A stretch of DNA of 64,000 nt, from NCBI GenBank assembly GCA_016214555.1, contig JACROF010000004.1:276-64275 (forward strand), read 5' to 3'. How positions within the stretch are numbered: position 1 is the stretch's first letter; each line of letters begins with the position of its first letter. Positions 1 through 28,860 of the stretch are shown here, in pieces. The position numbers and the translations under genes were made by a program. The stretch comes from Candidatus Levyibacteriota bacterium. GTDB taxonomy: Bacteria > Patescibacteriota > Microgenomatia > Levybacterales > UBA12049. The notes under the pieces were generated by a model. The model did not search any database. It had not been told where the DNA came from and saw only the letters and a program-made list of their open reading frames with translations.

Positions 1-24
1 CATGATCTCGCCGCATTTACTGCA

Positions 25-558
25 TTGAGCTATGTTATGGTCACTACTCCTTTCAAAGAAATTACTCTTGCTACAGCAATTGTTGCGTTTACGGCAAATA
101 TGGTTGGAGGATTGGCTCCAGACCTTGATCAATCGACAGCAAGTCTTTGGCATAGAGTAAGAGGAGGAAGTATGTTGGGGAAAATTATAGCACCACTTTT
201 GGGAGGACATCGCTTTCTTTCTCATTCGTTAGTTGGCATTTTTATTGCAGGAATTTTAGCTCGTATGTTTTTACAAGTTGCTAGTTCTGTTCTTTATGTT
301 GACATTGATATCGTATGGTGGGCATTTATGATTGGGTTCATATCCCATCTTTTTATGGATCTATTTACTCATGATGGGATACCATTATTATTTCCTATTC
401 CACTAAAATTAGGAATTCCACCATTGAGTTTTTTGCGCATTAAAACAGGAGGTTTGGTTGAAAAATCTTTCGTATTTCCTGTTCTTCTTTTTATTACGAT
501 TTGCCTCTATTATTTTAATTATCATGATGTATTACATATACTGCGTAATTTATCCTAA
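25..558 (+). CDS. Membrane-bound metal-dependent hydrolase (YdjM/DUF457-like); may be 5'-truncated at the window edge
   Basis: Multi-TM protein with His-rich motifs (HRFLSHSLVG, HLFMDLFTHDG) typical of LexA-regulon YdjM-type hydrolases. The ORF starts at a TTG and the frame is open back to position 1. Confidence 0.4.
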   Translation: MSYVMVTTPFKEITLATAIVAFTANMVGGLAPDLDQSTASLWHRVRGGSMLGKIIAPLLGGHRFLSHSLVGIFIAGILARMFLQVASSVLYVDIDIVWWAFMIGFISHLFMDLFTHDGIPLLFPIPLKLGIPPLSFLRIKTGGLVEKSFVFPVLLFITICLYYFNYHDVLHILRNLS

Positions 559-577
559 GTCATAATACAATCATCAT

Positions 578-1762
578 ATGCTACAGACACTTAAAAACTA
601 TTACCACCTGATTCAGGGAGTTGTTGCTGTTTCATTTCGTATGAATCCAACTCGTGGAATGACAGTTATAGGTGTTACGGGTACCGATGGGAAGACGACA
701 ACTTCCAGCCTTATCTACCACATACTAACAAAGATAGGTTATAAAGTAGCACTTATTTCAACAATTGGTGCATATATTGATGGAAAAAAGTTAGATACAG
801 GTCTTCATGTATCGACCCCCAACAGTTTTCAACTTCAGAGATATATAACTTTAGCAAAAGAAAAAGGAGTAACTCATATCATACTTGAAGTGACATCTCA
901 CGCAATTGACCAACATAGAATTTATGGCATTCCATTTGACATTGGTGTAGTTACCAACATAACAAGAGAGCATCTGGATTATCACAAGTCAATGAAAAGA
1001 TATATGGAAACCAAAGCAAAGTTGTTACAAAAATCACGTGTCGCTATCCTTAATAAGGACGATGGTTCCTATATCTTCCTTAAGCAAAGGCTGGCAGGAC
1101 ATAGGATAATTACATACGGACTTGAAGATGCTGAAGTTACTCCAAAAAATCATCCATTCAAGCAAAAACATGTAGGGTTATTTCATACCTATAACTCACT
1201 TGCAGCGCTTTCAGTGTGTGATGAAATTGGTGTTGATCCTAAAGCAGCTGCAGAAGCGCTTGAAAGTTTTAATCTGCCCGAGGGGAGATCGGAAGTTGTT
1301 TATAGAAATGGATTCACCATTATAATCGATTTTGCTCACACACCTCAGGCCATTGAAAGCGTTCTTTCGGCAATTAATGCTCAAAAAAAAGGTGGGCGTC
1401 TAATTCATGTGTTTGGGTGCGCAGGTGAGCGAGACAAGGGCAAAAGACCTTTAATGGGATCAGCTTCAGCAAAGTATGCGGATTGCATTATTCTTACCTC
1501 AGAAGATCCAAGATCTGAAGATGCAAACGAAATAGCAAATGAGATTAGGAAAGGAGTTCCAGATGGGAAAGATGTTATTACAGAGATTGATCGGGGAAAA
1601 GCGATAGAAAAAGCAATTTCTAAAGCGAAAAAGGGTGATGTTATTATTGTTACTGGCAAAGGCCATGAGAAGTCCATAAACTTTGGTAAAGGTGAAATAG
1701 GTTGGAGTGAGCATAAAGCGGTTGAGAATGCCCTTTTATCACAAGGAATCGTAAAGAAATAA
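578..1762 (+). CDS. murE: Mur ligase, MurE-like (UDP-MurNAc-tripeptide synthetase), lacking the usual N-terminal domain 1
   Basis: P-loop GVTGTDGKTTT within 40 residues of the start. MurE hallmarks GCAGERDKGKRPLMG and TSEDPRSED. Only 394 aa, against about 490 for a typical MurE. Confidence 0.7.
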   Translation: MLQTLKNYYHLIQGVVAVSFRMNPTRGMTVIGVTGTDGKTTTSSLIYHILTKIGYKVALISTIGAYIDGKKLDTGLHVSTPNSFQLQRYITLAKEKGVTHIILEVTSHAIDQHRIYGIPFDIGVVTNITREHLDYHKSMKRYMETKAKLLQKSRVAILNKDDGSYIFLKQRLAGHRIITYGLEDAEVTPKNHPFKQKHVGLFHTYNSLAALSVCDEIGVDPKAAAEALESFNLPEGRSEVVYRNGFTIIIDFAHTPQAIESVLSAINAQKKGGRLIHVFGCAGERDKGKRPLMGSASAKYADCIILTSEDPRSEDANEIANEIRKGVPDGKDVITEIDRGKAIEKAISKAKKGDVIIVTGKGHEKSINFGKGEIGWSEHKAVENALLSQGIVKK

Positions 1763-3186
1763 TGAAAAAAGTACGATCAATTCATTTTGTTGGAATAAAA
1801 GGTGTTGGTCTGACGCCACTTGCAATCATTGCCAAACAGGCAGGGATTAGCGTGACGGGGAGTGATGTTAGTGAGGAATTTATTACAAGCAAAACACTTG
1901 AGGAGTGTGGTATCACTATCTACAATGGTTTTTCACCTGATCATGTATCGCCAACTATTGATCTTGTTATTACTACAGGAGCACATGACGGTTTGCAAAA
2001 TGTTGAGGTTCTTGAGGCAATAAAACAACGAATTCCTGTTATGACAAAAGGGCAAGCGGTTGGTGAGTTTATGAAAGGAGAGATCGTGGGGAGGTCGTTT
2101 TCAGGAATCGCTATCGCTGGATCTCATGGAAAGACTACTACAACTGCGATGCTTACAATGCTGTTGCAATCTAACGGATTGGATCCAACATACACAGTTG
2201 GAACTGGATCATTGGGTGATGGGATTCCTCCAGGACACCTTGGGAAAGGAAAATACTTCGTTGCAGAATCAGATGAATACGCAACAGATCCGCAAACCGA
2301 TCATAAGCCTCAATTTATGTGGCTAAAGCCTGAGATAATTGTTTTAACAAATATCGAACATGATCACCCCGATCTTTATCCTACGATCGAAGATGTAGAA
2401 ATGGCATTTTCTAATTTTAGTACAAATATAACACCAAACGGTTTTATTATTGGGAATGGTGATGATGCTCGAGTAGCAAAAATATTAGCAAGGCATATAG
2501 GGAAGGGGATCTCATTTGGGTTTTCAGAAAAAAATGATTACGTTTTGCACAGAATTCACACTTCGGGATCTCAAACTTTTTTTCATGTGCGTTCAAAAGG
2601 TACTGAGCTTGGAGAATTTAGATTATCTGTTGCAGGTCAACATAATGCCATGAATGCGTTAGCAGCAGCAATTGTTGGATTGGAAGTCGGGCTTTCTTTG
2701 GAAAAAGTAAAAAAGGGCCTTTCTGAATTTAAAGGATCAAAAAGAAGACTAGAATTTAAAGGCCAATTGATAACGGGCGCGTACGTTTTTGACGACTATG
2801 CTCATCATCCAACTGAAATTAAAGCTACACTTCGTGCGTTAAGGGATAGTTATCCAAAACACTCACTCGTTGCTATTTTTCAACCTCATACTTATTCGCG
2901 AACAAAGGCTTTTATAGAGGATTTTGTCACTTGTTTCGATGAGGCAGAAAGTGTCATGTTAGTTGATATTTTTTCTTCTGCAAGAGAGCAAAAAGACGAT
3001 ACAGTAAATTCAGAACTTCTAGCTAAAAAAATTTCATTGCGTCATCCTTCATCAATTTTTGTTCCCGACATGAACCTCCTTCCATCAATCCTTTCTCATC
3101 AAAGATTAAGAGACAATGTTGTGGTTGTAGTTATGGGAGCAGGTAATATATATAAAATAATTGATAACCTACCATTGGTTTCTTAG
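1762..3186 (+). CDS. murC: UDP-N-acetylmuramate--L-alanine ligase
   Basis: IHFVGIKGVGLTPLA...SGSD N-terminal Rossmann domain, IAIAGSHGKTTTTAM P-loop and DDYAHHPTEI motif. Start ATG overlaps the murE stop (TAATG). Confidence 0.9.
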   Translation: MKKVRSIHFVGIKGVGLTPLAIIAKQAGISVTGSDVSEEFITSKTLEECGITIYNGFSPDHVSPTIDLVITTGAHDGLQNVEVLEAIKQRIPVMTKGQAVGEFMKGEIVGRSFSGIAIAGSHGKTTTTAMLTMLLQSNGLDPTYTVGTGSLGDGIPPGHLGKGKYFVAESDEYATDPQTDHKPQFMWLKPEIIVLTNIEHDHPDLYPTIEDVEMAFSNFSTNITPNGFIIGNGDDARVAKILARHIGKGISFGFSEKNDYVLHRIHTSGSQTFFHVRSKGTELGEFRLSVAGQHNAMNALAAAIVGLEVGLSLEKVKKGLSEFKGSKRRLEFKGQLITGAYVFDDYAHHPTEIKATLRALRDSYPKHSLVAIFQPHTYSRTKAFIEDFVTCFDEAESVMLVDIFSSAREQKDDTVNSELLAKKISLRHPSSIFVPDMNLLPSILSHQRLRDNVVVVVMGAGNIYKIIDNLPLVS

Positions 3187-3222
3187 TTTTGAGATCAAAC
3201 AAAAATCAAGTATAATAAACGA

Positions 3223-4545
3223 ATGAAAAATTTTGTGATCACTGGTGGAAACAGACTTAATGGTACAACAATTATTTCAGGCGCAAAGAACGTTAGTTTA
3301 AAAGTGCTTGTTGCTGCTTGTCTTACCGATGAGGAAGTAATAATTCACAATATTCCCTTAATTTCTGATGTCATGGTAATGCTTGATATTATTCGAGAAT
3401 TGGGCGGTGAGGTACACCTAGAAGAGCATACTGTTAAGATCAAGATGGAGCATTTTGCAACTGACACTATTACTCTTGACAGGGCATCGCATATCAGAAC
3501 ATCATCAATGTTTTTGGCTCCTCTTCTTATCAGAAATCATAGTGCGATTATTCCAAATCCAGGAGGTTGTCGTATAGGAGCACGTCCAATTGACTGGACT
3601 ATAGAGGGGTTAAAGCTTATGGGAGCTGATATTGATTACGAAAGTCTTGACGGATATTTTCATGCTCGTGCAGAAAAGCTAGAGGGAATAACATACCGTT
3701 TTAAAAAAAATACCCACACAGGTACTGAGACATTAATACTTGCTAGTGTTTGTGCAAATGGAAAGACAATATTAGAGAATGCAGCATTAGAACCCGAAGT
3801 CGATGAGTTAATAACATTCCTCAATACGATGGGAGCATCAATTAAGCGAACAGGAGAGAGGACAATAGAAATTGAGGGAGTTGAAAAACTTCATAGCACC
3901 TCCTTTACTATATCAGCTGACCGAAATGAGATAGTTACTTTTGCAATTGCAGCCTATGTAACACAGGGGGATATTTTTGTTTCTGGTGCGAAAAGAAAAG
4001 ATATAGATATTTTCCTAGACAAACTTGATGAAGTTGGTGCTGCATACGAAGAAAAAGAAGATGGAATAAGGTTTTACCATACGGGGGGACTTAGGGCAAC
4101 TGATGTTATCACTGCACCTTATCCCGGATTCATGACAGATTGGCAAGCACCATGGGCAGTGTTGATGAGTGTCTGCAGTGGAAAGGCATCAATACATGAG
4201 GCAGTTTTTTCTAATAGATTTGGATATGTAAAAGAGTTGCGAAAAATGGGTGCAAAAATTTCGTTCTACCATCCGCATGTAGAAAATCCTTCAAATTTTT
4301 ATAATTTTGATGTGGATGTAAATGAAAAAAATCCTCATGCTATTTATATTGAGGGGCCAGTTAAGCTCCATGATGCTATTGTATCTATCTCAGATCTTCG
4401 TGCAGGTGCTTCGTTGGTGCTTGCAGCATTAGCAGCAACCGGAGAAACAGTGATCCATGGTGTAGAGTTGATTGACAGGGGTTATGAAGATTTTCAAGAG
4501 CGATTGTCACATCTTGGGGCAAGGATTAGGAGAGAAGATGAATAG
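3223..4545 (+). CDS. murA: UDP-N-acetylglucosamine 1-carboxyvinyltransferase
   Basis: ISGAKNVSLKVLVAACL, PGGCRIGARPID and the double EPSP-synthase fold layout. Full length, 440 aa. Confidence 0.9.
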   Translation: MKNFVITGGNRLNGTTIISGAKNVSLKVLVAACLTDEEVIIHNIPLISDVMVMLDIIRELGGEVHLEEHTVKIKMEHFATDTITLDRASHIRTSSMFLAPLLIRNHSAIIPNPGGCRIGARPIDWTIEGLKLMGADIDYESLDGYFHARAEKLEGITYRFKKNTHTGTETLILASVCANGKTILENAALEPEVDELITFLNTMGASIKRTGERTIEIEGVEKLHSTSFTISADRNEIVTFAIAAYVTQGDIFVSGAKRKDIDIFLDKLDEVGAAYEEKEDGIRFYHTGGLRATDVITAPYPGFMTDWQAPWAVLMSVCSGKASIHEAVFSNRFGYVKELRKMGAKISFYHPHVENPSNFYNFDVDVNEKNPHAIYIEGPVKLHDAIVSISDLRAGASLVLAALAATGETVIHGVELIDRGYEDFQERLSHLGARIRREDE

Positions 4546-5305
4546 TAATTATTCTGATCGAAAAATTGCGGCAATAATACTTGCTGCTGGAGAAGGAAAG
4601 CGAATGCGAAGCGAAACAGGTGAGAACAAAGTGATTTCATTATTGGCTAACAAGCCAATGATAGTTCACATTGTTGAATTTATGAGTAAAATTGCTATTG
4701 ATCAAATTATAGTCGTTGTTGGTCATGCTAAAGATTCGGTTAAAAAAGCCCTTCATGGATATAACGTTTCGTATGCTGTGCAAGTTGAGCAGCATGGAAC
4801 GGGTGATGCGGTGAAAGTTGCGCTTACATCTTTGTTGTCAGATATTACAGATGTGGTTGTTGTTTATGGAGATGATGCAGTATTGTATAGCAAGGAAAAT
4901 ACTATGCTGTTCTCAGATCTTATTAAAAGTCATATCAGTCATCAGACGGCTGTGACTTTTTTGACTATAGAGCAAGAGAATCCATTTGGACTTGGTAGAA
5001 TCTTAAGGGATAGGGAAAATCGTGTGGTAGGGATTGTGGAGGAGAAGGATGCGACAGAAGAGCAGAAGAGAATTACTGAAATTAATCCAGGAAGCTTTGT
5101 GTTTAGTGTTGATTTTCTCAAAAAGTATCTCCCTTTGATTCAAAAAAGTGAAGCCACTGGTGAATATTACTTAACAAGTCTTATTGATATTGCGCTAGAA
5201 AATGGAGAGAGAGTTGAGGCCATTAAAGGTGGAGCTATTCCTTGGAGAGGAGTAAATACACCTGAAGAGCTTGTCATGGCTGAAAAACTTATGTCAAAAG
5301 AATAG
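4538..5305 (+). CDS. GlmU-like sugar-1-phosphate nucleotidyltransferase domain only (no LbetaH acetyltransferase domain)
   Basis: ILAAGEGKRMRS and IVEEKDATEEQKRITEINPG align closely with the E. coli GlmU N-terminal domain (LAAGKGTRM..., [20 protein letters not shown]). An SD (AGGAGAG) sits 8 nt upstream of an ATG that overlaps the murA stop. The ORF ends after about 255 aa. Confidence 0.8.
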   Translation: MNSNYSDRKIAAIILAAGEGKRMRSETGENKVISLLANKPMIVHIVEFMSKIAIDQIIVVVGHAKDSVKKALHGYNVSYAVQVEQHGTGDAVKVALTSLLSDITDVVVVYGDDAVLYSKENTMLFSDLIKSHISHQTAVTFLTIEQENPFGLGRILRDRENRVVGIVEEKDATEEQKRITEINPGSFVFSVDFLKKYLPLIQKSEATGEYYLTSLIDIALENGERVEAIKGGAIPWRGVNTPEELVMAEKLMSKE

Positions 5306-5307
5306 AT

Positions 5308-5760
5308 ATGAATATAGTTATCCAAGAACTTAAAACATTTACTAAAGAAGAGGCTGATAGCATAAGAAAGTTAGCAAAGATGATTGGTCATAATTATAAA
5401 GAATTAACAGATGCTGATCTTTGGGAAATTGTTGATTCTCAAAATACATATCTATTTATAGCAAGAGAGATAGAAAGCAATAGTATTGTTGGAATGGCTT
5501 TGTTGCTTGTCTATCGCATCCCTTATGTTCGTAAAGCGTACCTTGATGACCTTGTGGTTGATGAAGAACATCGTGGTCGGGGGATAGGGTCACAGCTTCT
5601 TCAGAAAGTAGTCGACACTGCAAGAGAAAAGAAGGCCGCATATTTAGACTTCTCATCAAGGCCTCGACGAGAAGAGGGAAATAATTTGTATGAAAAATTT
5701 GGATTTGTAAAGCGAGATGCGAATGTTTATCGTCAGGTAATCGATTATGGAGAAGTCTAA
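5308..5760 (+). CDS. GNAT-family N-acetyltransferase
   Basis: Acetyl-CoA binding motif VDEEHRGRGIGSQLLQKVV, 150 aa. Confidence 0.7.
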   Translation: MNIVIQELKTFTKEEADSIRKLAKMIGHNYKELTDADLWEIVDSQNTYLFIAREIESNSIVGMALLLVYRIPYVRKAYLDDLVVDEEHRGRGIGSQLLQKVVDTAREKKAAYLDFSSRPRREEGNNLYEKFGFVKRDANVYRQVIDYGEV

Positions 5761-6406
5761 GAAAATTGTTTTTTTTGATATTGATTATACTCTTTTCGAT
5801 ACTGACGCTTACCGAAGAATTTTGTACCCAAGGCTCGCTCATGAACTAGGTATAGATGAGGAATTGCTTAAAATTTTCCGTCGAGAGTTTGAGCCTGAAA
5901 TGAAAAAAAAATTCGGTCATTTCAGTCCAACATTTTTTTTACAAAAAATATTACCTCTTGCTAAAAAAAATACTTCACTTGAGGCTTTAGAGCAGATCTT
6001 TTGGGATAAAGCAATATATGCTAGCGTACTAGATAGCAAAGGGAAAGAGCTTTTTGAGCAATTAACAAATAAAAATGTTACTATTGGTTTGTTATCAACT
6101 GGTGATACAAAACACCAACTGGCAAAAATAGACTCATTACTCACATTTCTTCCTAGTGATCATCACCATATCTTTTCAAATAAAATCGAATCTCTTGAAA
6201 CTGTACTTGAAAAATATCATGAATTTAAGATATATATAATTGATGATCTTCCTGAAGTTTTGCATGCAGTTAAGCAGTTAAATCCAAATGTCATAACGAT
6301 TTTTAAAAAAACAAACAAAGTTTTTGAATCAACAAATACAATTCAAAATTTTAATCCAGATTTTGAAATTGATGATTTAATGGAGATTTTGGAAATCGTT
6401 ATGTAA
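5747..6406 (+). CDS. HAD-superfamily hydrolase (phosphatase or phosphomutase fold)
   Basis: Motif I FFDIDYTLFD (DxDxT), motif II LLSTGD and motif IV IIDDLPE. Confidence 0.6.
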   Translation: MEKSKKIVFFDIDYTLFDTDAYRRILYPRLAHELGIDEELLKIFRREFEPEMKKKFGHFSPTFFLQKILPLAKKNTSLEALEQIFWDKAIYASVLDSKGKELFEQLTNKNVTIGLLSTGDTKHQLAKIDSLLTFLPSDHHHIFSNKIESLETVLEKYHEFKIYIIDDLPEVLHAVKQLNPNVITIFKKTNKVFESTNTIQNFNPDFEIDDLMEILEIVM

Positions 6407-6414
6407 TAAGTATT

Positions 6415-9225
6415 ATGTGTGGAATTTTTGGTTATGTTGGTAAAAAAAATACTGCCTCTTCACTTATTCTTTCTGGTCTCAAACTCCTTGAATATCGTGG
6501 TTATGATTCGTGGGGAATTGCTGTCGCATCTGAAAAAGGGATTGTAACTCAAAAGGAAATTGGAAAGATTGGTCATATAACCCTCAAAATGCCAAAAAGC
6601 AATATTGGTATTGGCCATACTCGTTGGGCGACTCATGGGGGGGTAACTAAGGCAAATGCTCATCCTCATCATGATTGCAACAATGAAATTGCAATTATTC
6701 ATAATGGGATTATTGAAAACTATCTTCAAATAAAAGAGAGTCTCTTAAAAAAGAATCACGTTTTTTTATCAGAGACTGATACGGAAGTAGTTCCTCACTT
6801 AATTGAAGAATACATTTCATCAGGAAAAAGTTTTGTAGAGGCATTTAGAAAAGCATGTCTTGAGTGTAGGGGCCTGAATGCAATTGTGGCTTTTAGTGCA
6901 AAAACAAATGAAATAATCGCTGCCAAAACAGGTTCTCCTCTTATCATAGGTTTTGGGGAAAATGAATATTTTATTGCCTCTGATGCATCTGGAATAGTTG
7001 GTCATACCAAGAAACTAATTTTTATGGAAGATGATCAGATGGTTTTGTTGAATGATGAAATTTTACTTTTTTCATTAAAAGATGGAAAGAAAAAAAATCT
7101 TTCCATTGAGGAGGTTGATTGGAAAATAGATGATGTTAAGAAGGGTCAGTATCCCCATTTTATGATAAAAGAAATAATAGAACAGTCTGCGATTATTCAA
7201 AATATTGCAACAACATATGATGATCAGATTAAAGACATGGCAAAACTTATTGACAAAGCTTTCGGAACCTTTTTAATTGGAGCAGGTACCGCATATTTTG
7301 CAACACTTGCAGGAACATATCTTTTTTCAAAAATTGCACATAAGCATGTTAATACAGCTCCTGCGTCTGAATTTAATTATCTTGAAGATTTTATTACAAA
7401 AAAAAGTCTCATTATTGCTCTGTCACAATCCGGTGAAACAATAGATGTTATTGAGCCACTGAATCGTGCAAGAGATAAAGGTAGTACAATTGCTTCTCTT
7501 GTCAATGTATTAGGATCATCAATTTATCGAATGTCTGATAGAAAGATTTTACTTGGGGTTGGTCCAGAAAAAGCTGTCGCCTCGACAAAGGCATATACTG
7601 CGAAATTAAGTATGCTTATCCTGTTATCATATGCGCTTGTCAATAATGTTAAAGAAGGAAAAAAAGAGTTGCTCCTTGCAGCTAAAGAAATTAAGAAAAT
7701 TATGGATAATAGATCAGCCCTTGATAGTCTTGCAGATAAGGTCAAAAATACGGACCATATTTACCTTGTTGGGAGAGGAAAATCTTATGCCACAGCTCTT
7801 GAAGGCGCATTAAAAATAAAAGAAGTTAGCTATATTCATGCAGAAGGCATGGCGGGCGGAGAATTAAAACATGGTCCAATAGCACTTATTACCAAGGGTA
7901 CTCCCTGCATTGTTATCGCACCTGATGATGAGACGTATGATGCGATTATCTCTAATGCAATGGAAATTAAGGCGCGAGGAGGGTATATTATTGGGATTGC
8001 TGCAAGAAAAGAATTGGTTTTTGATACATGGATTCCCGTAAAGGACTGTGGTAATGCTTCGGTTATTTCCCATGTTGTCCCATTGCAGTATCTAGCATAC
8101 GCTTTGGCTTTAGCTTTTATTGTTTGGTCGTTACGATCTACTTTTTATTGGGTAGATTTTTGGGATCAGCATGCATACCAGAACTTTTCTTTAACAAAAA
8201 TTACATACGCGTTATTTAGCTCAGTATTTTCTGCATCAAATATAGTTTCTTGGCTTACTGTTGTTCTTGTTCTTGTATTTCTTATTAACGATACCCATGC
8301 AATTTTTTCTGAGATAGCGATATCTATCTTGATGGTTGGAAAAACACTGTATGTCCTATTTAGCGAGAAGAAAAGGTTTTTTCCAACAAATTTTTATTTA
8401 TGGAAAAAAAGCGTAATGGTATTAATCAGTCTTTTTTTGATATCTCTCGCTTTTACTTTTCCACTCGCAGAGAGATTTGTTTGGATATTATTTATCGATC
8501 GAATTCTTTTTTTAATCGTACTCCTAGCATTGACAATTAGTTTTTTTCCAATAGAGATCTACTCAGATGTTAAAGTGACGAAAGCTGCATCGCACATAAC
8601 AAAAATTAAGCATTTATCTTCAATAATTTTTGTAGGCGATAACTCATCCGAAACTGTTTCATTGTCATTATCTCTTTTAAAAGATGATTTTAACGTATTA
8701 CCTCTTTATGCTTCGTCTCCTCAAAGGCCAGAAGTTTTTGATCAAATAACTTCACAGGTTAGTTTTAACACAGAGTTACTTTTACTTTCAGTGGATGATG
8801 CGCACATTGATAACCTTTTATTGTTAATGCAGGAATTACATCCATTATTTCTTTTTCTTCCGGTGGAATATGTAGGAAATGAAAAATATATGAGACGCCT
8901 TCATAGTGAGGTAGCAACTCGGAGTACAAAAATTATTCTTCATGGAAATGATTTTCTTGTCAAAAAAGTATTACATATAGCAAATTCTAGGAAAAATGTG
9001 TCAATCAAAACTGAAATTGTTGCAAAAGCAATTAAATTGCATAAGAGAAAGGATACAAACACAATAGACGTTATTTTAGGTTCAAGAACGATACAGCTAC
9101 CTATTAGTTTTGATGAAACATTTATCAATCAATCTTTTCTTCCCGCAATTTTTCTCTCTGATGAGATGGGTGTTTCTGACAAGAAGATAAAAACTTCTTT
9201 AAAATCCTATTTTCTTACAGATTGA
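6415..9225 (+). CDS. glmS: Glutamine--fructose-6-phosphate aminotransferase (GlmS) fused in frame to about 4 TM helices and a C-terminal soluble domain of about 235 aa
   Basis: MCGIFGY N-terminal nucleophile Cys, class II glutaminase and two SIS domains run up to ...VPLQYLAYALALAF. The frame then continues through a hydrophobic stretch and a soluble tail with no stop codon until 9225. Confidence 0.75.
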   Translation: MCGIFGYVGKKNTASSLILSGLKLLEYRGYDSWGIAVASEKGIVTQKEIGKIGHITLKMPKSNIGIGHTRWATHGGVTKANAHPHHDCNNEIAIIHNGIIENYLQIKESLLKKNHVFLSETDTEVVPHLIEEYISSGKSFVEAFRKACLECRGLNAIVAFSAKTNEIIAAKTGSPLIIGFGENEYFIASDASGIVGHTKKLIFMEDDQMVLLNDEILLFSLKDGKKKNLSIEEVDWKIDDVKKGQYPHFMIKEIIEQSAIIQNIATTYDDQIKDMAKLIDKAFGTFLIGAGTAYFATLAGTYLFSKIAHKHVNTAPASEFNYLEDFITKKSLIIALSQSGETIDVIEPLNRARDKGSTIASLVNVLGSSIYRMSDRKILLGVGPEKAVASTKAYTAKLSMLILLSYALVNNVKEGKKELLLAAKEIKKIMDNRSALDSLADKVKNTDHIYLVGRGKSYATALEGALKIKEVSYIHAEGMAGGELKHGPIALITKGTPCIVIAPDDETYDAIISNAMEIKARGGYIIGIAARKELVFDTWIPVKDCGNASVISHVVPLQYLAYALALAFIVWSLRSTFYWVDFWDQHAYQNFSLTKITYALFSSVFSASNIVSWLTVVLVLVFLINDTHAIFSEIAISILMVGKTLYVLFSEKKRFFPTNFYLWKKSVMVLISLFLISLAFTFPLAERFVWILFIDRILFLIVLLALTISFFPIEIYSDVKVTKAASHITKIKHLSSIIFVGDNSSETVSLSLSLLKDDFNVLPLYASSPQRPEVFDQITSQVSFNTELLLLSVDDAHIDNLLLLMQELHPLFLFLPVEYVGNEKYMRRLHSEVATRSTKIILHGNDFLVKKVLHIANSRKNVSIKTEIVAKAIKLHKRKDTNTIDVILGSRTIQLPISFDETFINQSFLPAIFLSDEMGVSDKKIKTSLKSYFLTD

Positions 9226-9269
9226 GACGTTGATTGATCTGTTGTAAAAGGGAGAGTATAATATCTTCT

Positions 9270-10283
9270 ATGGCATTCTTATTGGGGCTTACCATCATGT
9301 CTTTTTTCATTTCAATCATCCTTCTGATTCCATTTATCGATTTTTTGTATAGAGCTAAGCTTCGTCGGCAGCATCAAATAACAAAAGACATGTTTAATCA
9401 GCATACTCCAATGTTTGATAAATACCATAAGTGGAAAGTAGGGACACCAGTTGGGGGAGGGATATTGGTGATTGTGATTACGACAGTACTAACGTTATGG
9501 TCTTATGGGATTCTTTCCATTCCTGTAAAAGCTTGGGAGCTTTTTGTAATCTTTTTTTCATTTATTGGATTTGGAATCTTAGGTTTTTTTGATGATTGGA
9601 AGAAATTATCTAATTCAGGTAAAGAAAATGTATTTTTTGGAATTCGTTTTAGGCACAAATTCATTATTCAATGGGCTTTGGCTTTAGTAATTGCATCAGT
9701 GTTTTATTTTCAACTTGGGTATTCTTTTCTCTACATACATGGTATTGGGCTAGTGGGTGTTGGAGCATTTTTTATACCATTTGCCGCTTTCGTCATAGTT
9801 TCTTTTGTTAACGCAGTTAACATCGCTGATGGACTTGATGGTCTCGCATCTGGTTTGTTAGTAATTTGTTTGTTTGGCTTTTTAGCGATTAATTCGACAC
9901 AGATTGATAGATCACTTGGGGTATTTATTGCAGTGTTACTAGGTTCAGTTATGGCATTTTTGTATTTTAATATTTATAAAGCAAGGCTTTGGATTGGGGA
10001 TGTGGGAGCGCTTTCTCTTGGCGCAGCCCTTGCGGTTATCGGACTTCTCACCGGAAAAACTTTGACTCTTGCAGTAATTGGTGGTGTATTTATTATCGAA
10101 ATAGCATCATCACTTCTTCAGATACTCAGTAAAAAATATTTTAACAAGAAACTATTCCCCGCAGCACCTTTTCATCTCTATCTTCAGTTGAGAGGTTGGG
10201 AAGAGCCAAAAATAGTTATGAGAGCATGGCTTGTTGGAATATTTTTTGCAGTTCTTGGTGTATATCTTGCATTTCTTACCTGA
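9270..10283 (+). CDS. mraY: Phospho-N-acetylmuramoyl-pentapeptide transferase
   Basis: NAVNIADGLDGLASG signature and polytopic topology. ATG at 9270 is preferred over the upstream TTG because a GGGAGAG SD precedes it. Confidence 0.9.
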   Translation: MAFLLGLTIMSFFISIILLIPFIDFLYRAKLRRQHQITKDMFNQHTPMFDKYHKWKVGTPVGGGILVIVITTVLTLWSYGILSIPVKAWELFVIFFSFIGFGILGFFDDWKKLSNSGKENVFFGIRFRHKFIIQWALALVIASVFYFQLGYSFLYIHGIGLVGVGAFFIPFAAFVIVSFVNAVNIADGLDGLASGLLVICLFGFLAINSTQIDRSLGVFIAVLLGSVMAFLYFNIYKARLWIGDVGALSLGAALAVIGLLTGKTLTLAVIGGVFIIEIASSLLQILSKKYFNKKLFPAAPFHLYLQLRGWEEPKIVMRAWLVGIFFAVLGVYLAFLT

Positions 10284-10324
10284 CCTCCTCGCATCATCGC
10301 TTTTTTTGCTATAGAATAGAATGT

Positions 10325-11389
10325 ATGCGCAACATTGATCACGTTCTTCTTGCTGTAGTTGCATTTTTGACAATTTTTGGCCTTTTTATGATATACGATG
10401 CCTCATCTGTTATCGCATTTAGGGATTTTGGAGACAAATATCATTATATTAAGGAGCAGTGTATCAATGCAGTGTTAGGAATAATAGCATTAGGTTTTTT
10501 TACGTTTTTTGATTACAAAAAACTCTACAACCTATCAGTCCCCATCCTCTTGATAGCTATCGGAATGTTGATTGCTGTCTTTATTCCTGGAATTGGTATC
10601 TATGCATTAGGTGCCCATCGCTGGATTAATTTAGGAGTGACAGTTCTTCAGCCTGCTGAATTTGTGAAATTGAGTTTGGCTATCTATCTTTCAGCATGGT
10701 TTTCCACAAAAGAGAGAGGGAGACTTCCAGCATTTGGTCTTTTAATGGGATTTGTTCTTCTTCTTATCATGGCTCAACCTGATATGGGTACAGCGTCAAT
10801 AATAATGTTTGAAGCCGTTCTGCTATATTTTTTATCTGGTGCAACAATAGCGCATTTTTTGATGTTGATTCCTGTTTTGGGTATTGGTGGAGTAGTGCTT
10901 ATTCTTATTGCTCCATATCGACTCGCGAGGCTTACTTCCTTTCTTCATGCAGGAGATAATTTTGAAGGAACATCATATCACGTTAGGCAAATTTTGATAG
11001 CTCTTGGCTCAGGAGGACTTTTTGGAGTTGGAGCAGGAAATTCTCTCCAGAAATTTGCATATCTTCCAGAGAATGTTACTGACTCTATCTTTGCTATTAT
11101 TGCAGAAGAGTTCGGCTTTATTGGATCATTTGGACTCATTCTTTTATTTGTTATGATTATGTGGAGGGGATTTGTTATATCGGCTCGGTCAAAAGATACT
11201 TTTGGAAAATTATTATCAGCAGGAATAATTTGTTTTTTAGGTGTGCAAGCAGTTATTAATTTTGCAGCAATGACTGCACTTATTCCGTTGACAGGAGTGC
11301 CTTTGCCATTTATTTCCTATGGAGGATCAGCGCTTATTGTTGATCTTGCAGCTATTGGTATTGTATTAAATATCTCAAAACAACACTAA
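10325..11389 (+). CDS. ftsW: SEDS-family peptidoglycan glycosyltransferase, FtsW-like
   Basis: Polytopic protein ending ...GVPLPFISYGGSALIVDLAAIGIVLN. Its position between mraY and murG supports the call. ATG at 10325 is chosen to avoid a 90-nt out-of-frame overlap with mraY. Confidence 0.8.
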   Translation: MRNIDHVLLAVVAFLTIFGLFMIYDASSVIAFRDFGDKYHYIKEQCINAVLGIIALGFFTFFDYKKLYNLSVPILLIAIGMLIAVFIPGIGIYALGAHRWINLGVTVLQPAEFVKLSLAIYLSAWFSTKERGRLPAFGLLMGFVLLLIMAQPDMGTASIIMFEAVLLYFLSGATIAHFLMLIPVLGIGGVVLILIAPYRLARLTSFLHAGDNFEGTSYHVRQILIALGSGGLFGVGAGNSLQKFAYLPENVTDSIFAIIAEEFGFIGSFGLILLFVMIMWRGFVISARSKDTFGKLLSAGIICFLGVQAVINFAAMTALIPLTGVPLPFISYGGSALIVDLAAIGIVLNISKQH

Positions 11390-11391
11390 AT

Positions 11392-12510
11392 ATGAAAATT
11401 GTTATAGTAGGTGGTCATTTATCTCCAGCTCTTGCAATTATAGACGCCCTTCCTGAGGGGGTGGATGTCCGATTTATTGGTCGAAAAACGGCAGTTGAGG
11501 GTGACCAGTCAACATCTTTGGAGTATCGTGAAATTACCTCTAGAAACATCTCCTTTTTCCCCTTAACAACAGCCAGGGTACAAAGATCATTAAGTAGGCA
11601 TACCTTCCCGTCTATTATAAGGTTGCCGATAGGGATGTATCAGGCAGTAGAATATCTTCGAAGAGAAAAACCTGACGTTGTACTATCATTTGGAGGATAT
11701 CTTTCGGTGCCAGTTGGATTTGCTGCAAAGATACTTGGTATTCCGCTTGTAATTCATGAGCAAACTTTTCATGTCGGCTTAGCCAATAAAGTATTATCAT
11801 CGTTTGCTTCCAGAATCTGTATATCTTGGGAATCATCAAAAAAATACTTTCCTCAAAGCAAGACTGTACTTACGGGTAATCCTATGCGAAAATTTGAAAT
11901 GAAAAATTTTCCCTATGTTTTCTCAACAAGTGATGAGAAGTTACCTCTTGTTTACATTACTGGAGGAAGTACTGGATCTCATGTAATAAATGTACTTGTT
12001 GAGGAATCAATCAAAGATCTTCTTACTAGTTCGCGAGTTATTCATCAAACAGGCGACACAAAAGAATTTGGAGATTATGATAAGCTAAATAATTTCCGAA
12101 AAAATCTTACTGAAAAAGAAAAAGGAAGATACATTATTGAGAAATTTATTAAACCCGATACAACAGGGATAATAATGAAAAATGCCGATCTAGTTGTAAG
12201 TAGAGCTGGAATGAACACAATAACAGAGTTGTTATATTTTGAGACACCAGCGCTCCTTATTCCTCTTCAAACAGGTCAGAAAAATGAACAGATTCTTAAT
12301 GCGAAGTTTTTTGCATCACTTGACGTGGGTGAGAATTTATTTCAAAAAGGATCAAGTGGTAAGAATTTTTATATGCTCTTAACAAGAATGTTATCTGAGC
12401 TTAGTAGGTATCAAAAAGGATTTGAAAAAGCTCATAAGCTTATCATTGAAGATGCAGCAAAGCAGGTTATTGCGCAGATGTTCTATGTGGTCAAGAAAAA
12501 GACTTCTTAA
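11392..12510 (+). CDS. murG: UDP-GlcNAc:lipid I GlcNAc transferase
   Basis: MKIVIVGGHLSPALAI N-terminus and GT28 two-domain layout. Confidence 0.9.
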   Translation: MKIVIVGGHLSPALAIIDALPEGVDVRFIGRKTAVEGDQSTSLEYREITSRNISFFPLTTARVQRSLSRHTFPSIIRLPIGMYQAVEYLRREKPDVVLSFGGYLSVPVGFAAKILGIPLVIHEQTFHVGLANKVLSSFASRICISWESSKKYFPQSKTVLTGNPMRKFEMKNFPYVFSTSDEKLPLVYITGGSTGSHVINVLVEESIKDLLTSSRVIHQTGDTKEFGDYDKLNNFRKNLTEKEKGRYIIEKFIKPDTTGIIMKNADLVVSRAGMNTITELLYFETPALLIPLQTGQKNEQILNAKFFASLDVGENLFQKGSSGKNFYMLLTRMLSELSRYQKGFEKAHKLIIEDAAKQVIAQMFYVVKKKTS

Positions 12511-12925
12511 AAAAGAGAAAAGACATCATAATAAAAAGAAAATTTTACTCCTAAGTTTATTTTTTGGATTAATCGGAGTGTTTTTTATTGCTGTTGGGGC
12601 ATTGATATTGTCAAGGGAGCCTATATTTACTAGCCCTTTGCCGTTACTTAGGACTTTTGGCGCAAGTACAGATAAGAATGAAGACAAAGCGGCAATCGAA
12701 AGCTTTCTTTCTAAGAATCATATTACCTATAAAAAATTGGAGCAAGTAGGATCTTCAGATTTTCGTCTTCAGACTCAATTAGGGGTAGTGTTTTTAACAT
12801 CAAATCGAGATTTGTCCGTGCAATTAACCTCTTTACAAAGAATCCTCTCTCGCCTTACAATGGAAGGTAAGAAGTTTGTAAGGCTTGATCTCCGCTTTGA
12901 CAAGCCTGTTATTGTATTGCAATGA
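12485..12925 (+). CDS. Short bitopic membrane protein, FtsQ/DivIB-like by position
   Basis: Basic N-terminus, a single TM (ILLLSLFFGLIGVFFIAVGALIL) and a beta-rich extracytoplasmic domain. It sits between murG and ftsA, where ftsQ normally lies. Only about 147 aa. Confidence 0.35.
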   Translation: MWSRKRLLKKEKRHHNKKKILLLSLFFGLIGVFFIAVGALILSREPIFTSPLPLLRTFGASTDKNEDKAAIESFLSKNHITYKKLEQVGSSDFRLQTQLGVVFLTSNRDLSVQLTSLQRILSRLTMEGKKFVRLDLRFDKPVIVLQ

Positions 12926-14223
12926 AACAATCACCATCAGAAGGAAGAATAATTGTAGGTATAGACGTTGGTACATCCAAGATAGTTACTCTTATTGCTA
13001 AAATAGATGAGTCGGTTAATATCCTCGGGGTTTCAGAAGTTAAATCTGCTGGAATTAGGAAAGGACAAATTGTTGACATCGAAGAGGCAGTAAACGCGAT
13101 CAATACGTCAATTGAGGCTAGTGAGCGTATGGCTGGATACTCTGTGTCTCATGTCTTTGCTTCTATTGGAGGTAGTCAAATTGACAGTCAAAATTCCCGT
13201 GGAGTTGTTGCAGTTTCAACACCGCAAGGAGAGATAACACCGAGTGATTTAAGTCGCGTAATCGATGCGGCAAAAGCAATTTCACTTCCGTCAACAAGGG
13301 AGATTATCCATGTTTTGCCACGAAATTATACCGTTGATGGACAGGAAGGTATTAAAGATCCGATTGGTATGTCTGGAGTGAGACTTGAGGTTGATACACA
13401 CATTATTACAGCAAACAGCATTGCTGTTCGTAACCTTGATAAAGCGTTTTCTGAGGTAGGAGTAGATGTTAGTAGCTATGTTTTTAATGGCTATGCTAGC
13501 TCTCTTGCAGTTTTATCAGATACAGAAAGGGAATTGGGCGTGGTATTAGTAGATATTGGCGCTGGAACAACTGATATTTCTATTTATACGGAAGGATCAG
13601 TCGCTTATTCGTCAGTACTTGCCATTGGAGCACGTCACATCACTAACGATTTGGCGATAGGGCTTCGAATTTCCCTTGAGAGCGCAGAAAAAATTAAAGT
13701 CTTCCTTTCAAAGCAAGCAAGTAAAAGAGTTCTAAGACCTGAAGAAGATGAAAAAACAAGAGAAGCCAAGCCATCAGACGAAATAGATCTTTCATCTCTT
13801 AATCTTCCAGAGGAAGTTCGGAAAGTGTCATATAAAACATTGGTAGATGGCATAATCAGGCCGCGAATGAATGAAATTTTTACTATGGTAGGAATTGAGA
13901 TTAAAAAAAGTGGTTATGGTGGTCAGACCCCCGCTGGACTTGTAATTACAGGCGGCGGAGCACTTACTGTTGGGATTAAGGATGCTGCAAAAAGAATGCT
14001 AGCTATGCCAGTAAGAGTAGGGTTGCCTACAGACCTTAAAGGTATTGTTGATGAAGTTCAGACACCCTCATACGCAAGCGTTGTAGGGCTTTTAATGTAT
14101 GGAGCAAAAAATGATCCAGGAGCTCGCTCAGGATCTTTTGGTTTTGCTATGCCTAAGCTACCTGGATCCTCAAATAAAATGATTAAAAAACTTTTTGACC
14201 TCATCAAATCTTTTATTCCATAG
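12922..14223 (+). CDS. ftsA: Cell division protein FtsA
   Basis: IVGIDVGTSKIV actin-fold phosphate-1 motif and VVLVDIGAGTTDISIY phosphate-2 motif. Confidence 0.9.
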   Translation: MKQSPSEGRIIVGIDVGTSKIVTLIAKIDESVNILGVSEVKSAGIRKGQIVDIEEAVNAINTSIEASERMAGYSVSHVFASIGGSQIDSQNSRGVVAVSTPQGEITPSDLSRVIDAAKAISLPSTREIIHVLPRNYTVDGQEGIKDPIGMSGVRLEVDTHIITANSIAVRNLDKAFSEVGVDVSSYVFNGYASSLAVLSDTERELGVVLVDIGAGTTDISIYTEGSVAYSSVLAIGARHITNDLAIGLRISLESAEKIKVFLSKQASKRVLRPEEDEKTREAKPSDEIDLSSLNLPEEVRKVSYKTLVDGIIRPRMNEIFTMVGIEIKKSGYGGQTPAGLVITGGGALTVGIKDAAKRMLAMPVRVGLPTDLKGIVDEVQTPSYASVVGLLMYGAKNDPGARSGSFGFAMPKLPGSSNKMIKKLFDLIKSFIP

Positions 14224-14275
14224 TATTCCACTGTCCCTTGCAAATAGTAGTATCTTCTGCTAGGATTTACCCACG

Positions 14276-15451
14276 ATGCTCATTCGGCCTCAAACCACAA
14301 ATTTTGCAAAAATTCGAGTCATTGGTGTAGGTGGTGGAGGATGTAATGCAATTGCCTCAATGATCACCCACAACAATATTCAGGGAGTTGATTTTGTTGC
14401 CATCAATACAGATGCTCAGGCCCTTCTACGTAACCCCGCAATAACAAAAGTTCAAATTGGTGAAAATCTTACTAAAGGTCTCGGGTCGGGAGGAGATCCA
14501 GAAATTGGGAGACAAGCTGCTGAGGAATCAGCCGAAAAAATAAAAGATATGCTGGAGGGGTCGGACATGGTCTTTTTGACGTGTGGGATGGGTGGTGGAT
14601 CAGGAACAGGCGCAACACCAATTGTAGCCAAAGTTGCAAAGGAAGTTGGGGCTCTTACAATCGCTGTTGTTACCAAGCCTTTTTCTTTTGAGGGAACACG
14701 TCGTATGGTTGTTGCTGAGGAGGGAATTGAGAGTCTTAAAGATAAAGTTGATACGCTTATTGTCATCCCAAATCAGAGGATCATGGATGTAGTAGATCGA
14801 AAATTGTCGCTTCTTGAAGCATTTAAAGTAGCTGATTCAGTCCTATCCCAAGGTGTTCAGGGAATTTCTGAGATCATCACCTTGCCAGGTCTTATCAATG
14901 TTGACTTTGCTGACGTCAGAACAATTATGTCAAATGCGGGCTCTGCTCTTATGGGTATTGGCACAGGGATTGGAGAGAATAGGGCACAGGCGGCTGCAAG
15001 GGCTGCTATAGCATCACCTTTGCTTGAGGTCACCATGGATGGAGCTCGTGGTGTCCTTTTCAATATTGTAGGAGGTAATGATTTGACTATGACAGAGGTA
15101 GATGAAGCAGCAAAAATTATCTCAAGCTCTGCAGATCCTGATGCAAATATTATTTTTGGAGCAACTATTGATGAGTCGATGCATGACCAAATCCGTATTA
15201 CAGTTGTGGCAACAGGTTTTGATCAGACAAAACAACGCCTACAGCAATTTGTCGCTCCTCATTACCAAAGACAACAGCCTGAGGTAAAGGAATACAATAG
15301 TCCATTTGTAACATCAAATGGTTATCAGTCAGAGGAAGAAGAGCAGTCATCTCAGCAAGATCAAGCTCCCTCTGTAGCGAGTCAGCCAGTTAAAAAAGAG
15401 ACAGAGGAAGATGAGTGGGACATACCAGCCTTCTTAAGACAAAGAAACTAA
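14276..15451 (+). CDS. ftsZ: Cell division GTPase FtsZ
   Basis: [20 protein letters not shown] tubulin signature and acidic C-terminal tail. Confidence 0.95.
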
Positions 15452-15464
15452 AAAGTACCTGCCC

Positions 15465-16097
15465 ATGATGAAAAACATGGACGCAGTATTAACTCCACTA
15501 ACTCAATTTTTCTTTAACGTTATCCCTGGTTCTTTGTTTCTCTATGTTGTTTATGTATTTAACTTAATTCCATACGCGTGGAAAACAAGTTACATTGACC
15601 CCGCCTTGGGAAAAAATGAAGTTTTTATACTTGCACTACTCCTAATTGTAGGTGGGGGAATGGGATTCGTATTTCAGGCAATTACAAAATTAGTAAGGGA
15701 ATGGTTCAAGTTAGATGAGCTCATTACTATGAAAGTGTTGTGTGATAATAAGGATGGGATGAAGATGAAAAAAATATGGACAAGACTTAGATTTACTCCA
15801 AATGTACATGAAAGAATTCAAGTAAGAAAAGCCTTCTTTCTTATGGATTGTTATTTAAGAGCAGAAGGAAAAGCACATATTATTTTTCATTTTAGTACAC
15901 GATTTGCTTTTTGGTCTAATATTCTTGTTGCATTAATTCTTCTTGGAATTATACAAGCTTTTGCAGGCATAAATGGTGTGTCTGATCAGATATTCTCTTG
16001 GTATTACTTACTGGTTATTTTAGTGATTTGTGTTTGCTACTATCACTTCAGGTCTCTATATGATGTGGTTTTTAAAACTTTTGCAACTTCCAAATAA
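15465..16097 (+). CDS. Hypothetical polytopic membrane protein
   Basis: Four to five predicted TM helices and no recognisable motif. It lies immediately downstream of ftsZ. Confidence 0.4.
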   Translation: MMKNMDAVLTPLTQFFFNVIPGSLFLYVVYVFNLIPYAWKTSYIDPALGKNEVFILALLLIVGGGMGFVFQAITKLVREWFKLDELITMKVLCDNKDGMKMKKIWTRLRFTPNVHERIQVRKAFFLMDCYLRAEGKAHIIFHFSTRFAFWSNILVALILLGIIQAFAGINGVSDQIFSWYYLLVILVICVCYYHFRSLYDVVFKTFATSK

Positions 16098-16196
16098 TTT
16101 TTATTAGATCGTAGAATCTTTGAAATGCGACGCATGAGGATAAATTCACTCTAAAACTCATCAAGAGTAAGTCAGTAGATATGTTATACTTTTCGC

Positions 16197-17042: not shown

Positions 17043-17170
17043 CGTCCGATGCGTTTACCCCTATTGCTAAACTTTTAGTCGCGCGCTAATATTGTGGGGA
17101 TTATGGAAACTAAAGTTCAATTGCGTTGTCTTAGAAATGCGGGAATATCTGAGATAAAGGGATTAGTCTA

Positions 17171-17195
17171 TGCCTAGCATAGGCAGTATTTTTAA
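17171..17195 (+). terminator. Putative intrinsic terminator (6-bp stem tgccta/taggca plus a T-run)
   Basis: tgcctaGCAtaggca followed by gtattttta, located between convergent genes. Confidence 0.3.
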
Positions 17196-28222: not shown

Positions 28223-28252
28223 TTGATATTATCTTCTTGTCCTGTTATAATT
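28223..28252 (+). promoter_or_regulatory. Promoter TTGATA-18-TGnTATAAT lying 5 nt upstream of the start codon
   Basis: ttgata at 28223-28228 and tgttataat at 28244-28252. The ATG is at 28258, so the transcript is leaderless or nearly so. Confidence 0.4.
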
Positions 28253-28257
28253 TAGGT

Positions 28258-28860
28258 ATGAATAGATATGTTATTGGTGTTGTAGGAGGTGCTTCAACAG
28301 GCAAAGGAGAAATTACTGACTTTCTTAGAAAACAAGAAATTATTCATTTTAATGATATTTCACTTTCAGATATTTTGCGTGAACTTGCAACACAAGAAGG
28401 AAAATCTCATAAAAGAGAGGATCTTGAAGCTGTCGGGACAGCCCATAGAGAACAATTTGGGGATGATTTTTTGGCAAGAATTGCAGTAGATATATTATGT
28501 GCAAATCCTGCTGAGAATTATATTGTTGAGAGCATTAAGCACCCAGATGAAATAAGAACACTTAAGAGCGAGGTCAACGCGCTTATTCTTGGTGTGACTA
28601 TGTCTCCAGAGCGAAGATTTGCTTTTATGCAGGAGAGAGCAAGAGAAGGGGACTCTGTAAAATGGGCAGCTTTTCACAATTTATTATTACTTGAGAAAAG
28701 CTCGACTGGCCATGGCATCCGAGTTGATGATGCTTTGAGAGAGGCGGATGTTCTGATTGACAACGATGGGACCCTTGATGATCTACATAGAAAAGTAGCA
28801 AAGGTTTTACTGGAGAGAGGGATTTATCTTGAAGGTAGACCCCCACACAAAGAGCGGTAA
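28258..28860 (+). CDS. P-loop NTPase, small nucleotide/nucleoside kinase-like
   Basis: Walker A GVVGGASTGKGE at the N-terminus and a size of about 200 aa. The family is not resolved. Confidence 0.45.
   Translation: MNRYVIGVVGGASTGKGEITDFLRKQEIIHFNDISLSDILRELATQEGKSHKREDLEAVGTAHREQFGDDFLARIAVDILCANPAENYIVESIKHPDEIRTLKSEVNALILGVTMSPERRFAFMQERAREGDSVKWAAFHNLLLLEKSSTGHGIRVDDALREADVLIDNDGTLDDLHRKVAKVLLERGIYLEGRPPHKER

Follow-up and report, generated by a model that had tools for sequence, protein, structure and literature searches.

We analyzed a 64,000-nucleotide (nt) stretch of a Candidatus Levyibacteriota bacterium genome (assembly GCA_016214555.1, contig JACROF010000004.1), referred to here as the window, which carries a cell-wall gene cluster and, within it, one long open reading frame (ORF) at 6415..9225 on the forward strand. 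This ORF reads from ATG to stop as a single frame of 936 codons; genes for MurE, MurC, MurA, the uridylyltransferase half of GlmU, a GNAT protein and a HAD protein lie upstream of it, and those for MraY, FtsW and MurG downstream. Its first part is GlmS, and the remainder, which we call the tail, is a membrane-anchored protein that probably descends from MurF. We found that the window, compared with a nearly identical sister assembly that carries the two as separate genes, lacks 110 nt at the point where they meet. An initial annotation of this DNA had already described the single 936-codon frame and its location in the murF position, immediately upstream of mraY, and both observations hold: the 936-amino-acid (aa) product is 100% identical to NCBI MBI5044704.1 ('MAG: glutamine--fructose-6-phosphate transaminase (isomerizing) [Candidatus Levybacteria bacterium]').

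The sister assembly is represented by the 81-kb Logan contig SRR12113407_282241 (L012), assembled from run SRR12113407 and reached via the GlmS part of the ORF. When the whole 936-aa protein was used as the query, the top match was P0073, a stand-alone GlmS of 585 aa encoded on L012, and none of the top 120 matches was a GlmS homologue longer than 607 aa. Window positions 1-61,777 are identical to L012 apart from the 110-nt gap and six clustered single-nucleotide polymorphisms (SNPs) at 28393-28701; in blastn, 1-8114 and 8115-18062 each aligned with zero mismatches, the 110 nt absent from the window being the sole difference there. On L012, GlmS ends in ...ALALAKNLDPDKPRNLAKSVTVK (...PRNLAKSVTVK), with the canonical C-terminal tail (C-tail) and a stop codon, and after a 14-nt spacer a separate gene (11773-12921) encodes a 382-aa protein that starts with MISEALYIIVAICFIVWSLRS. 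The missing bases correspond to L012 11701-11810, that is, the G of Ala567, 18 codons, the stop, the 14-nt spacer, 12 codons and the TG of Cys13. Since the two genes are offset by 2 (mod 3) and 110 is likewise 2 (mod 3), the fusion is in frame. A stop near 8100-8200 had been named beforehand as the sign of two separate genes, and in substance this is what appeared, through the independent assembly and not through mapped reads. The ORF is made up as follows.

6415..8114, forward strand: glmS-derived part, codons 1-566 and the first two bases of codon 567, with a Cys1 glutaminase domain and two SIS domains.
8113..8115, forward strand: deletion junction, with the break at 8114/8115; codon 567, GCT (Ala), combines the GC of GlmS Ala567 (GCG) with the T of the downstream Cys13 (TGT).
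30-mer spanning the junction 8114/8115: GCTTTGGCTTTAGCTTTTATTGTTTGGTCG.
8115..9225, forward strand: MurF-like part, codons 14-382 and the stop of the 382-aa gene, based on L012 gene 11773-12921, P0194 and phmmer matches to 72 stand-alone relatives (best P0001, E 8e-83).

The MurF-like gene has thereby lost its own start codon, the upstream spacer and its first 13 residues, which form half of its first transmembrane (TM) helix, TM1; L012 and all relatives have the start codon and a complete TM1. Neither a simple frameshift nor a lost stop codon accounts for the fusion, since the canonical GlmS C-tail is found neither in the ORF frame nor in the two other frames (8035-8400) and the assemblies differ by a 110-nt gap, not by an indel of 1-2 nt. 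The breakpoints share no bases and no repeat (zero microhomology), which likewise rules out a microhomology- or repeat-mediated deletion. Scans for an internal promoter, terminator or restart at the junction gave signals at or below the shuffled expectation: the TTG codons 557 and 564 have no purine-rich sequence upstream, and the first in-frame ATG past the junction is codon 640, inside TM3.

On balance, and with no more than moderate confidence, we favor the reading that a blunt 110-bp deletion made the 936-codon ORF a chimera, and that the ORF represents a real, young, strain-level and probably loss-of-function allele in the sampled Levybacteria population. The blunt, repeat-free junction speaks for a real allele, as do the six non-synonymous SNPs in the second patch, which suggest that the two assemblies represent two haplotypes. 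The fusion is present in the deposited record MBI5044704.1 and so is not an artefact of the window. It is quite possible, if in our view not probable, that the organism has the normal two genes, that the gap arose in assembly, polishing or curation while the contig of the metagenome-assembled genome was built, and that no cell contains a fusion protein. Several observations lend weight to such an artefact and count against the allele that we favor. The fusion allele occurs in one assembly and in no other assembly, relative or database protein searched, and the independent SRR12113407 assembly, otherwise identical over 61.8 kb, shows two intact genes; base identity over 62 kb is what one read set passed through two pipelines, one with a local error, would give. 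The assemblies differ in one further place, again a small patch of the kind that local consensus errors would leave. Moreover, the deletion damages both genes and destroys conserved functional elements of each, and a real, abundant allele would require that the organism tolerate a dead GlmS. The consequences that we attach to the deletion below (loss of activity, mis-insertion of TM1 and a scaffold role for the downstream protein) also derive from homologous enzymes, charge bias and a predicted structure. An artefact is, however, harder to reconcile with the junction itself. Without a repeat at the breakpoints, a repeat-collapse misassembly is unlikely, and with neither microhomology nor a flanking repeat, overlap joining does not explain the gap either. 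De Bruijn assemblers emit only k-mers found in the reads. The window contains no Ns or scaffolding marks, and six SNPs that are all non-synonymous look more like a real selected variant than like noise.

The six SNPs lie in ORF 28237..28860, which encodes a P-loop kinase-like protein (Pfam AAA_17, weak), five of them within 41 bp, and they produce the changes K53Q, T142K, E144A, D145A, Q147H and R155S; in five of them the window has a C (X-to-C). We considered a diversity-generating retroelement as their source and rejected it, as no template-repeat copy is present in the window. The cluster could reflect local diversifying selection or a local consensus problem.

The glmS-derived part is 100% identical to P0073 up to the junction. 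As initially annotated, residues 1 to about 565 comprise a GlmS glutaminase domain and two SIS domains: the NCBIfam glmS model TIGR01135 scores 583.8 bits (cutoff 418.05) and matches over model positions 1-588 of 607, leaving the last ~19 unmatched; NF001484 scores 604.2 bits for the 936-aa protein (cutoff 381); and Pfam assigns GATase_6/7 and two stretches of PF01380 (SIS, E 5.7e-42). The Cys1 nucleophile is present (MCGIFG, residues 1-6), with the alignment to E. coli GlmS beginning at residue 1. The claim that this GlmS lacks its active-site C-tail also proved correct. It stops 18 residues short; the intact allele has KNLDPDKPRNLAKSVTVK there, which aligns to E. coli ...IKGTDVDQPRNLAKSVTV, and the equivalent of Lys603 falls among these missing residues. 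Lys603 is one of three isomerase catalytic residues of GlmS (PMC9272926), the C-tail becomes ordered upon Fru-6-P binding and closes the isomerase site (PMC10087520), and together with Trp74 it forms the sealed ammonia channel (PMC7948480). Because the C-tail with its Lys603 equivalent is gone, we predict that GlcN-6-P synthase activity would be lost or crippled. The N-terminal part of the fusion is GlmS by descent, lacks the C-tail and Lys603, and to judge from its sequence is an incomplete enzyme. The public record names this deletion chimera plain GlmS, though GlmS activity is probably lacking, and counts of 'GlmS present' or of a 'novel domain fusion' in Candidate Phyla Radiation (CPR) genomes can be misled by such a chimera.

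The tail (aa 561-936) gave no match to Pfam, NCBIfam, PHROGs or PDB sequences, even at an E-value of 10, and a word-indexed protein search returned nothing for the tail and only 10 matches for the family alignment. An exhaustive HMMER (phmmer) search with the tail over 1.84 billion cluster representatives identified 72 relatives, all stand-alone proteins of ~380 or ~525 aa that start where the tail starts. The best of these, P0001 (378 aa), is 41% identical (E 8e-83; 4-374 aligned to 10-376). The link to MurF runs through another member, P0014 (535 aa), which matches the tail over its full length (E 2e-15) and itself matches Mur_ligase_M (1.6e-22) and Mur_ligase_C (1.2e-10) and carries a canonical P-loop, GSYGKSSTK. 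Among solved structures, a profile of 36 members matches those of MurF best (E. coli 1gg4, E 1.3e-34); 32 of these members match the NCBIfam murF model (TIGR01143), and a profile of the P-loop-less members alone still places MurF first, though only at E 0.055. Foldseek on an AlphaFold2 (AF2) model of the tail likewise ranked MurF first (2am1, 3zl8, 4qf5; probability 1.00). The similarity to Mur ligases for which a profile search had been proposed was thus not found by direct matching; it emerged through the family profile and transitively. Together with synteny and predicted structure, this transitive homology supports the idea that the tail descends from MurF and is catalytically degenerate. 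By descent and position it is MurF, yet it lacks every catalytic feature and falls below every HMM threshold. The window tail and the family share an N-terminal domain of five TM helices (5-TM) with the motifs W..RS.FYW, FPL.E and DR, followed by the Mur central domain, and on these grounds we assign the tail to an unnamed Levybacteria/Patescibacteria family of membrane-anchored MurF-like proteins. No paper on a membrane-anchored MurF in CPR/Patescibacteria was found in the searchable library.

Hydropathy shows the GlmS part followed by a hydrophobic segment and then a soluble tail, as initially described. The original count of about four hydrophobic helices needs revision, as the AF2 model and family charge analysis indicate five, the first of them a GlmS/TM1 hybrid. 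The AF2 model (pLDDT 86.7, pTM 0.75) joins a helical membrane bundle to a C-terminal alpha/beta domain, and the following features can be placed on it.

8098..8178, forward strand: hybrid first helix, aa 562-588; the N-terminal half is the last GlmS SIS helix (YALALA) and the rest is native TM1 (FIVWSLRSTFYWVDFWD, family motif W..RS.FYW), based on AF2 helix 2-28 of the tail and the family alignment.
8233..8544, forward strand: TM2 (8233-8286), TM3 (8299-8364), TM4 (8398-8457) and TM5 (8473-8544), based on hydropathy, AF2 and positive-inside analysis.
8458-8484, forward strand: family motif FPLAERFVW.
8617..9222, forward strand: Mur-ligase central-domain fold, aa 735-936, without catalytic motifs, based on Foldseek, motif alignment and the family profile.

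Across the family, the N-terminus and loops 2 and 4 are poor in K/R, and loops 1 and 3 and the linker after TM5 are rich in K/R. This charge pattern indicates that the protein crosses the membrane five times, its N-terminus lying outside and its Mur domain inside (N-out/C-in).

Within the central domain, the catalytic elements are gone. In keeping with the earlier observation of a non-P-loop sequence at the Mur P-loop position, the motif G-x-x-G-K-[ST] is replaced by FVGDN-SSETV (FVGDNSSETVS, aa 739-749, 8629-8661); the P-loop is intact in 18 of the 73 aligned family sequences. The Mg-binding Glu of 'ELG' has become Ser (LLLLSVDD, within 8776-8799), and the N..H motif is lost, the region not being alignable. 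The tail ends at the final central-domain helix (LPAIFLSDEMGVS, 9139-9177), and Mur_ligase_C is absent, as the alignment shows it also to be in P0001/L001 and in L002. One detail of the original description did not survive: the end of the tail, 'SFDETFINQSF...AIFLSDEMGVSD', had been likened to the C-terminal MurF motifs DDSYNANP and GDMLELG, but its counterpart in E. coli MurF is 'GRHNIANALAAAALSMSVGAT', the final strand and helix of the central domain, where 'AIFLSDEMGVSD' pairs with the 'ALAAAALSMSVGAT' helix and not with the C-domain GDMLELG motif. At the other end, the UDP-binding N-domain (PF01225) is replaced by the 5-TM bundle across the whole family.

We then compared eleven related loci from Levybacteria and other Patescibacteria (L001-L011), located with a five-sequence alignment, the full family alignment being too divergent; this alignment-based search of genome and metagenome contigs returned no relative closer than 40% identity. 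In all 11 loci, glmS and the MurF-like gene are separate adjacent ORFs, and mraY follows the MurF-like gene in 10 of them, that is, in every contig long enough to show it. One locus, L005, has a P-loop-intact version of 535 aa in the same glmS-X-mraY slot, which identifies the degenerate genes as positional orthologues of a membrane-anchored murF. Two flanking genes of the window bear on this synteny.

9270..10283, forward strand: mraY, directly downstream of the ORF (TIGR00445, E 2.9e-54; synteny).
5747..6406, forward strand: HAD-family gene, the conserved upstream neighbor of glmS (Pfam Hydrolase/HAD_2, weak; NCBI 'HAD family hydrolase' MBI5044703.1; synteny).

Three of the loci (L002, L004 and L006; CAYWEJ010000001.1, CAZERI010000002.1 and CAYRJZ010000002.1) are labeled 'uncultured Gammaproteobacteria bacterium', which looks wrong because they have the Levybacteria/Patescibacteria-specific gene order and 60-98% protein identity to Levybacteria loci.

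The MurF-like gene is by far the fastest-evolving in the cluster: amino-acid identity between the window and L001 is 41.5% for the MurF-like protein, 76.5% for GlmS, 81% for MurA, 92% for FtsW and 95.5% for MraY. This rate, far above that of its neighbors (41.5% vs 95.5% for MraY), together with the loss of all ATP- and Mg-binding motifs and of the entire C-terminal domain, is what a non-functional murF pseudogene remnant, read through from glmS, would show. We nevertheless regard such a remnant as highly improbable. The sister assembly and the 11 relatives all have the stand-alone gene intact, and in an AT-rich background (31% GC) a frame open for 369 codons is expected by chance at only ~9e-13, or ~1e-12 in round terms (0 of 20,000 shuffles). 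The ratio of nonsynonymous to synonymous substitution rates (dN/dS) between L001 and L002, at an unsaturated dS of 0.15, is 0.245 for the MurF-like gene, compared to 0.096 for glmS, 0.033 for mraY and 0.18 for murG. In addition, the membrane-domain motifs (W..RS.FYW, FPL.E and DR) are conserved and the AF2 fold is confident (pLDDT 86.7). The stand-alone MurF-like gene is fast-evolving yet clearly constrained by purifying selection, and is a pseudoenzyme, not a pseudogene. The initial view of the tail as a decayed murF was therefore right about MurF descent and catalytic decay, as far as transitive homology, predicted structure and synteny carry, and wrong about a dying remnant.

The same comparisons bear on whether the fusion could be an adaptation. 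Since the sister assembly and all 11 relatives keep two genes, the fusion is not an evolved bifunctional enzyme, and neither of the original alternatives, a captured murF remnant on glmS or a GlmS variant tethered to the membrane, finds support as an evolved architecture. Whether the allele is real, an artefact or adaptive, this is not a conserved GlmS-MurF architecture. A membrane-tethered GlmS that brings hexosamine synthesis to the MraY/MurG machinery, with the new sequence taking over the function of the C-tail, would be in line with a fusion that is in frame and open for 369 further codons, with genes of the same pathway on either side, and with the existence of Mur-enzyme fusions elsewhere, such as the MurE-MurF fusion 8f5d among the profile matches. 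We give this scenario very little credence: the fusion has no evolutionary depth, its in-frame outcome has a one-in-three prior by chance, the catalytic Lys603 and channel-forming C-tail are deleted and their replacement bears no similarity to a C-tail (PMC9272926, PMC7948480), and the enzyme is joined to the normally external end of TM1.

Returning to the deletion allele that we favor, we propose the following sequence of events. The operon would normally carry glmS and, adjacent to it in a different frame, the gene for a membrane-anchored, catalytically dead MurF orthologue. From this arrangement the 110-bp deletion would have taken out the stop and the 14-nt spacer, together with 18 codons at the end of glmS and 12 and two-thirds codons at the start of its downstream neighbor. 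With its own start codon gone and no in-frame ATG between the junction and codon 640, the MurF-like part would be made only as an extension of GlmS. A 567-aa cytoplasmic enzyme would be attached to the normally external end of TM1, half of which would be a buried GlmS helix; as a consequence, the chimera's membrane domain probably does not reach its native topology, and native insertion of TM1 appears unlikely from the charge pattern and the model. As for the intact downstream gene, the loss of catalytic motifs combined with purifying selection suggests that its product is most likely a non-catalytic membrane partner in MraY-proximal cell-wall steps.

A more far-reaching scenario, which we consider unlikely, is that a Levybacteria clade keeps a catalytically dead MurF orthologue beside mraY under purifying selection and, if it has no second canonical MurF, adds D-Ala-D-Ala by a non-orthologous route or builds its wall from tripeptide precursors. 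The pseudo-MurF would then serve as a membrane scaffold or substrate-handover partner for MraY, and the deletion allele would be real and segregating, evidence that an episymbiont can live without GlmS. Of greater interest than the fusion itself, a private 110-bp deletion, is the conserved MurF orthologue, membrane-anchored and catalytically dead. Levybacteria-group Patescibacteria have murF as a membrane protein, with five TM helices in place of the UDP-binding domain, and most sampled family members lack catalytic motifs while the gene is still conserved beside mraY. This bears on how ultra-small, host-dependent bacteria finish the peptidoglycan stem peptide and hand it over to the membrane-bound stages of synthesis; it is also a clear example of a pseudoenzyme that arose within an essential pathway.

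Several further observations concern the surrounding cell-wall genes. MurE (578-1762) is short (394 aa), and its alignment to MurE models starts only at about position 89; in sister contigs it has only Pfam Mur_ligase_M and Mur_ligase_C. Like the MurF-like protein, it has no N-terminal UDP-binding domain, and MurC (1762-3186) has one. These two are the only other Mur ligases in the window, in agreement with the earlier statement that it holds no intact murF or murD: no murD lies between mraY and ftsW (9234-11389), its usual site, and neither murD, murF, murB nor ddl was found within the 64 kb. The gene order upstream in the sister contig is mraZ-rsmH-(93 aa)-PBP-...-MurE-MurC-MurA, where PBP denotes a penicillin-binding protein. 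In the region 4538-6406, only the N-terminal uridylyltransferase half of GlmU is present (glmU model 2-238 of 452), followed by a separate GNAT acetyltransferase (5308-5760) and the HAD protein (5747-6406) in place of the left-handed beta-helix acetyltransferase domain, a trio conserved in all relatives. The GNAT protein might represent a GNA1-like (eukaryote-style) acetylation route; an attempt to establish a GNA1-type identity yielded only generic GNAT matches in the PDB. Farther downstream, we observed a class IV aminotransferase, possibly for D-amino acids, at 16197-17042, and, besides FtsW (10313-11389), a second SEDS protein (NCBI RodA, MBI5044724.1) at 32522-33604, just downstream of a gene for a tRNA synthetase. 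At ~36500-61800, Pfam on the identical Logan contig gives a long series of genes of the glycosyltransferase, methyltransferase, Wzx/Wzy-like (Polysacc_synt, Wzy_C), YfhO/PMT_2-like and GT87 types, which has the look of a large surface-glycan locus adjoining the cell-wall cluster.

Finally, we compared the two parts of the ORF to known systems. Residues 1-567 align along the full E. coli GlmS (PDB 4AMV, 2J6H, 1JXA), including MCGIF, the glutaminase domain, two SIS domains and GELKHG; the fusion differs in having a transmembrane segment instead of the last 18 residues with the C-tail and Lys603 equivalent, whereas the intact sister allele is an ordinary 585-aa GlmS. The tail resembles MurF (E. 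coli 1GG4, T. maritima 3ZL8, A. baumannii 4QF5 and S. pneumoniae 2AM1) in its central-domain fold and in the location of its gene directly upstream of mraY. It departs from MurF in that its family has the 5-TM domain instead of the PF01225 N-domain, its clade lacks the P-loop, the Mg-binding Glu and N..H, and the subclade of the window, L001 and L002 also lacks the C-terminal domain. Closest are membrane-anchored MurF-like 'hypothetical proteins' (OGH23936.1/OGH33962.1, 558 aa; P0014, 535 aa; and the L005 gene), which have the same 5-TM motifs, domain order and glmS-X-mraY location; unlike the tail, these are stand-alone proteins with their own start codon that keep GSYGKSSTKE, the Mg-binding Glu, N..H and Mur_ligase_C, and are presumably active ligases. 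The profile and fold matches also included the plant PAP11/MurE-like subunit of the plastid RNA polymerase (8R5O, 8QMA) and MurT of the MurT/GatD lipid II amidotransferase (6GS2, 7Q8E). Both have kept the Mur-ligase fold for a role other than cytoplasmic UDP-MurNAc-peptide ligation. PAP11 has a structural role, and MurT, in contrast to the tail, retains its ATP site; neither has a membrane domain, and the kinship shown with the tail is that of the shared superfamily. By analogy, PAP11/MurE-like and MurT are the nearest conceptual precedents for a non-catalytic or re-purposed Mur-ligase homologue such as the tail appears to be.

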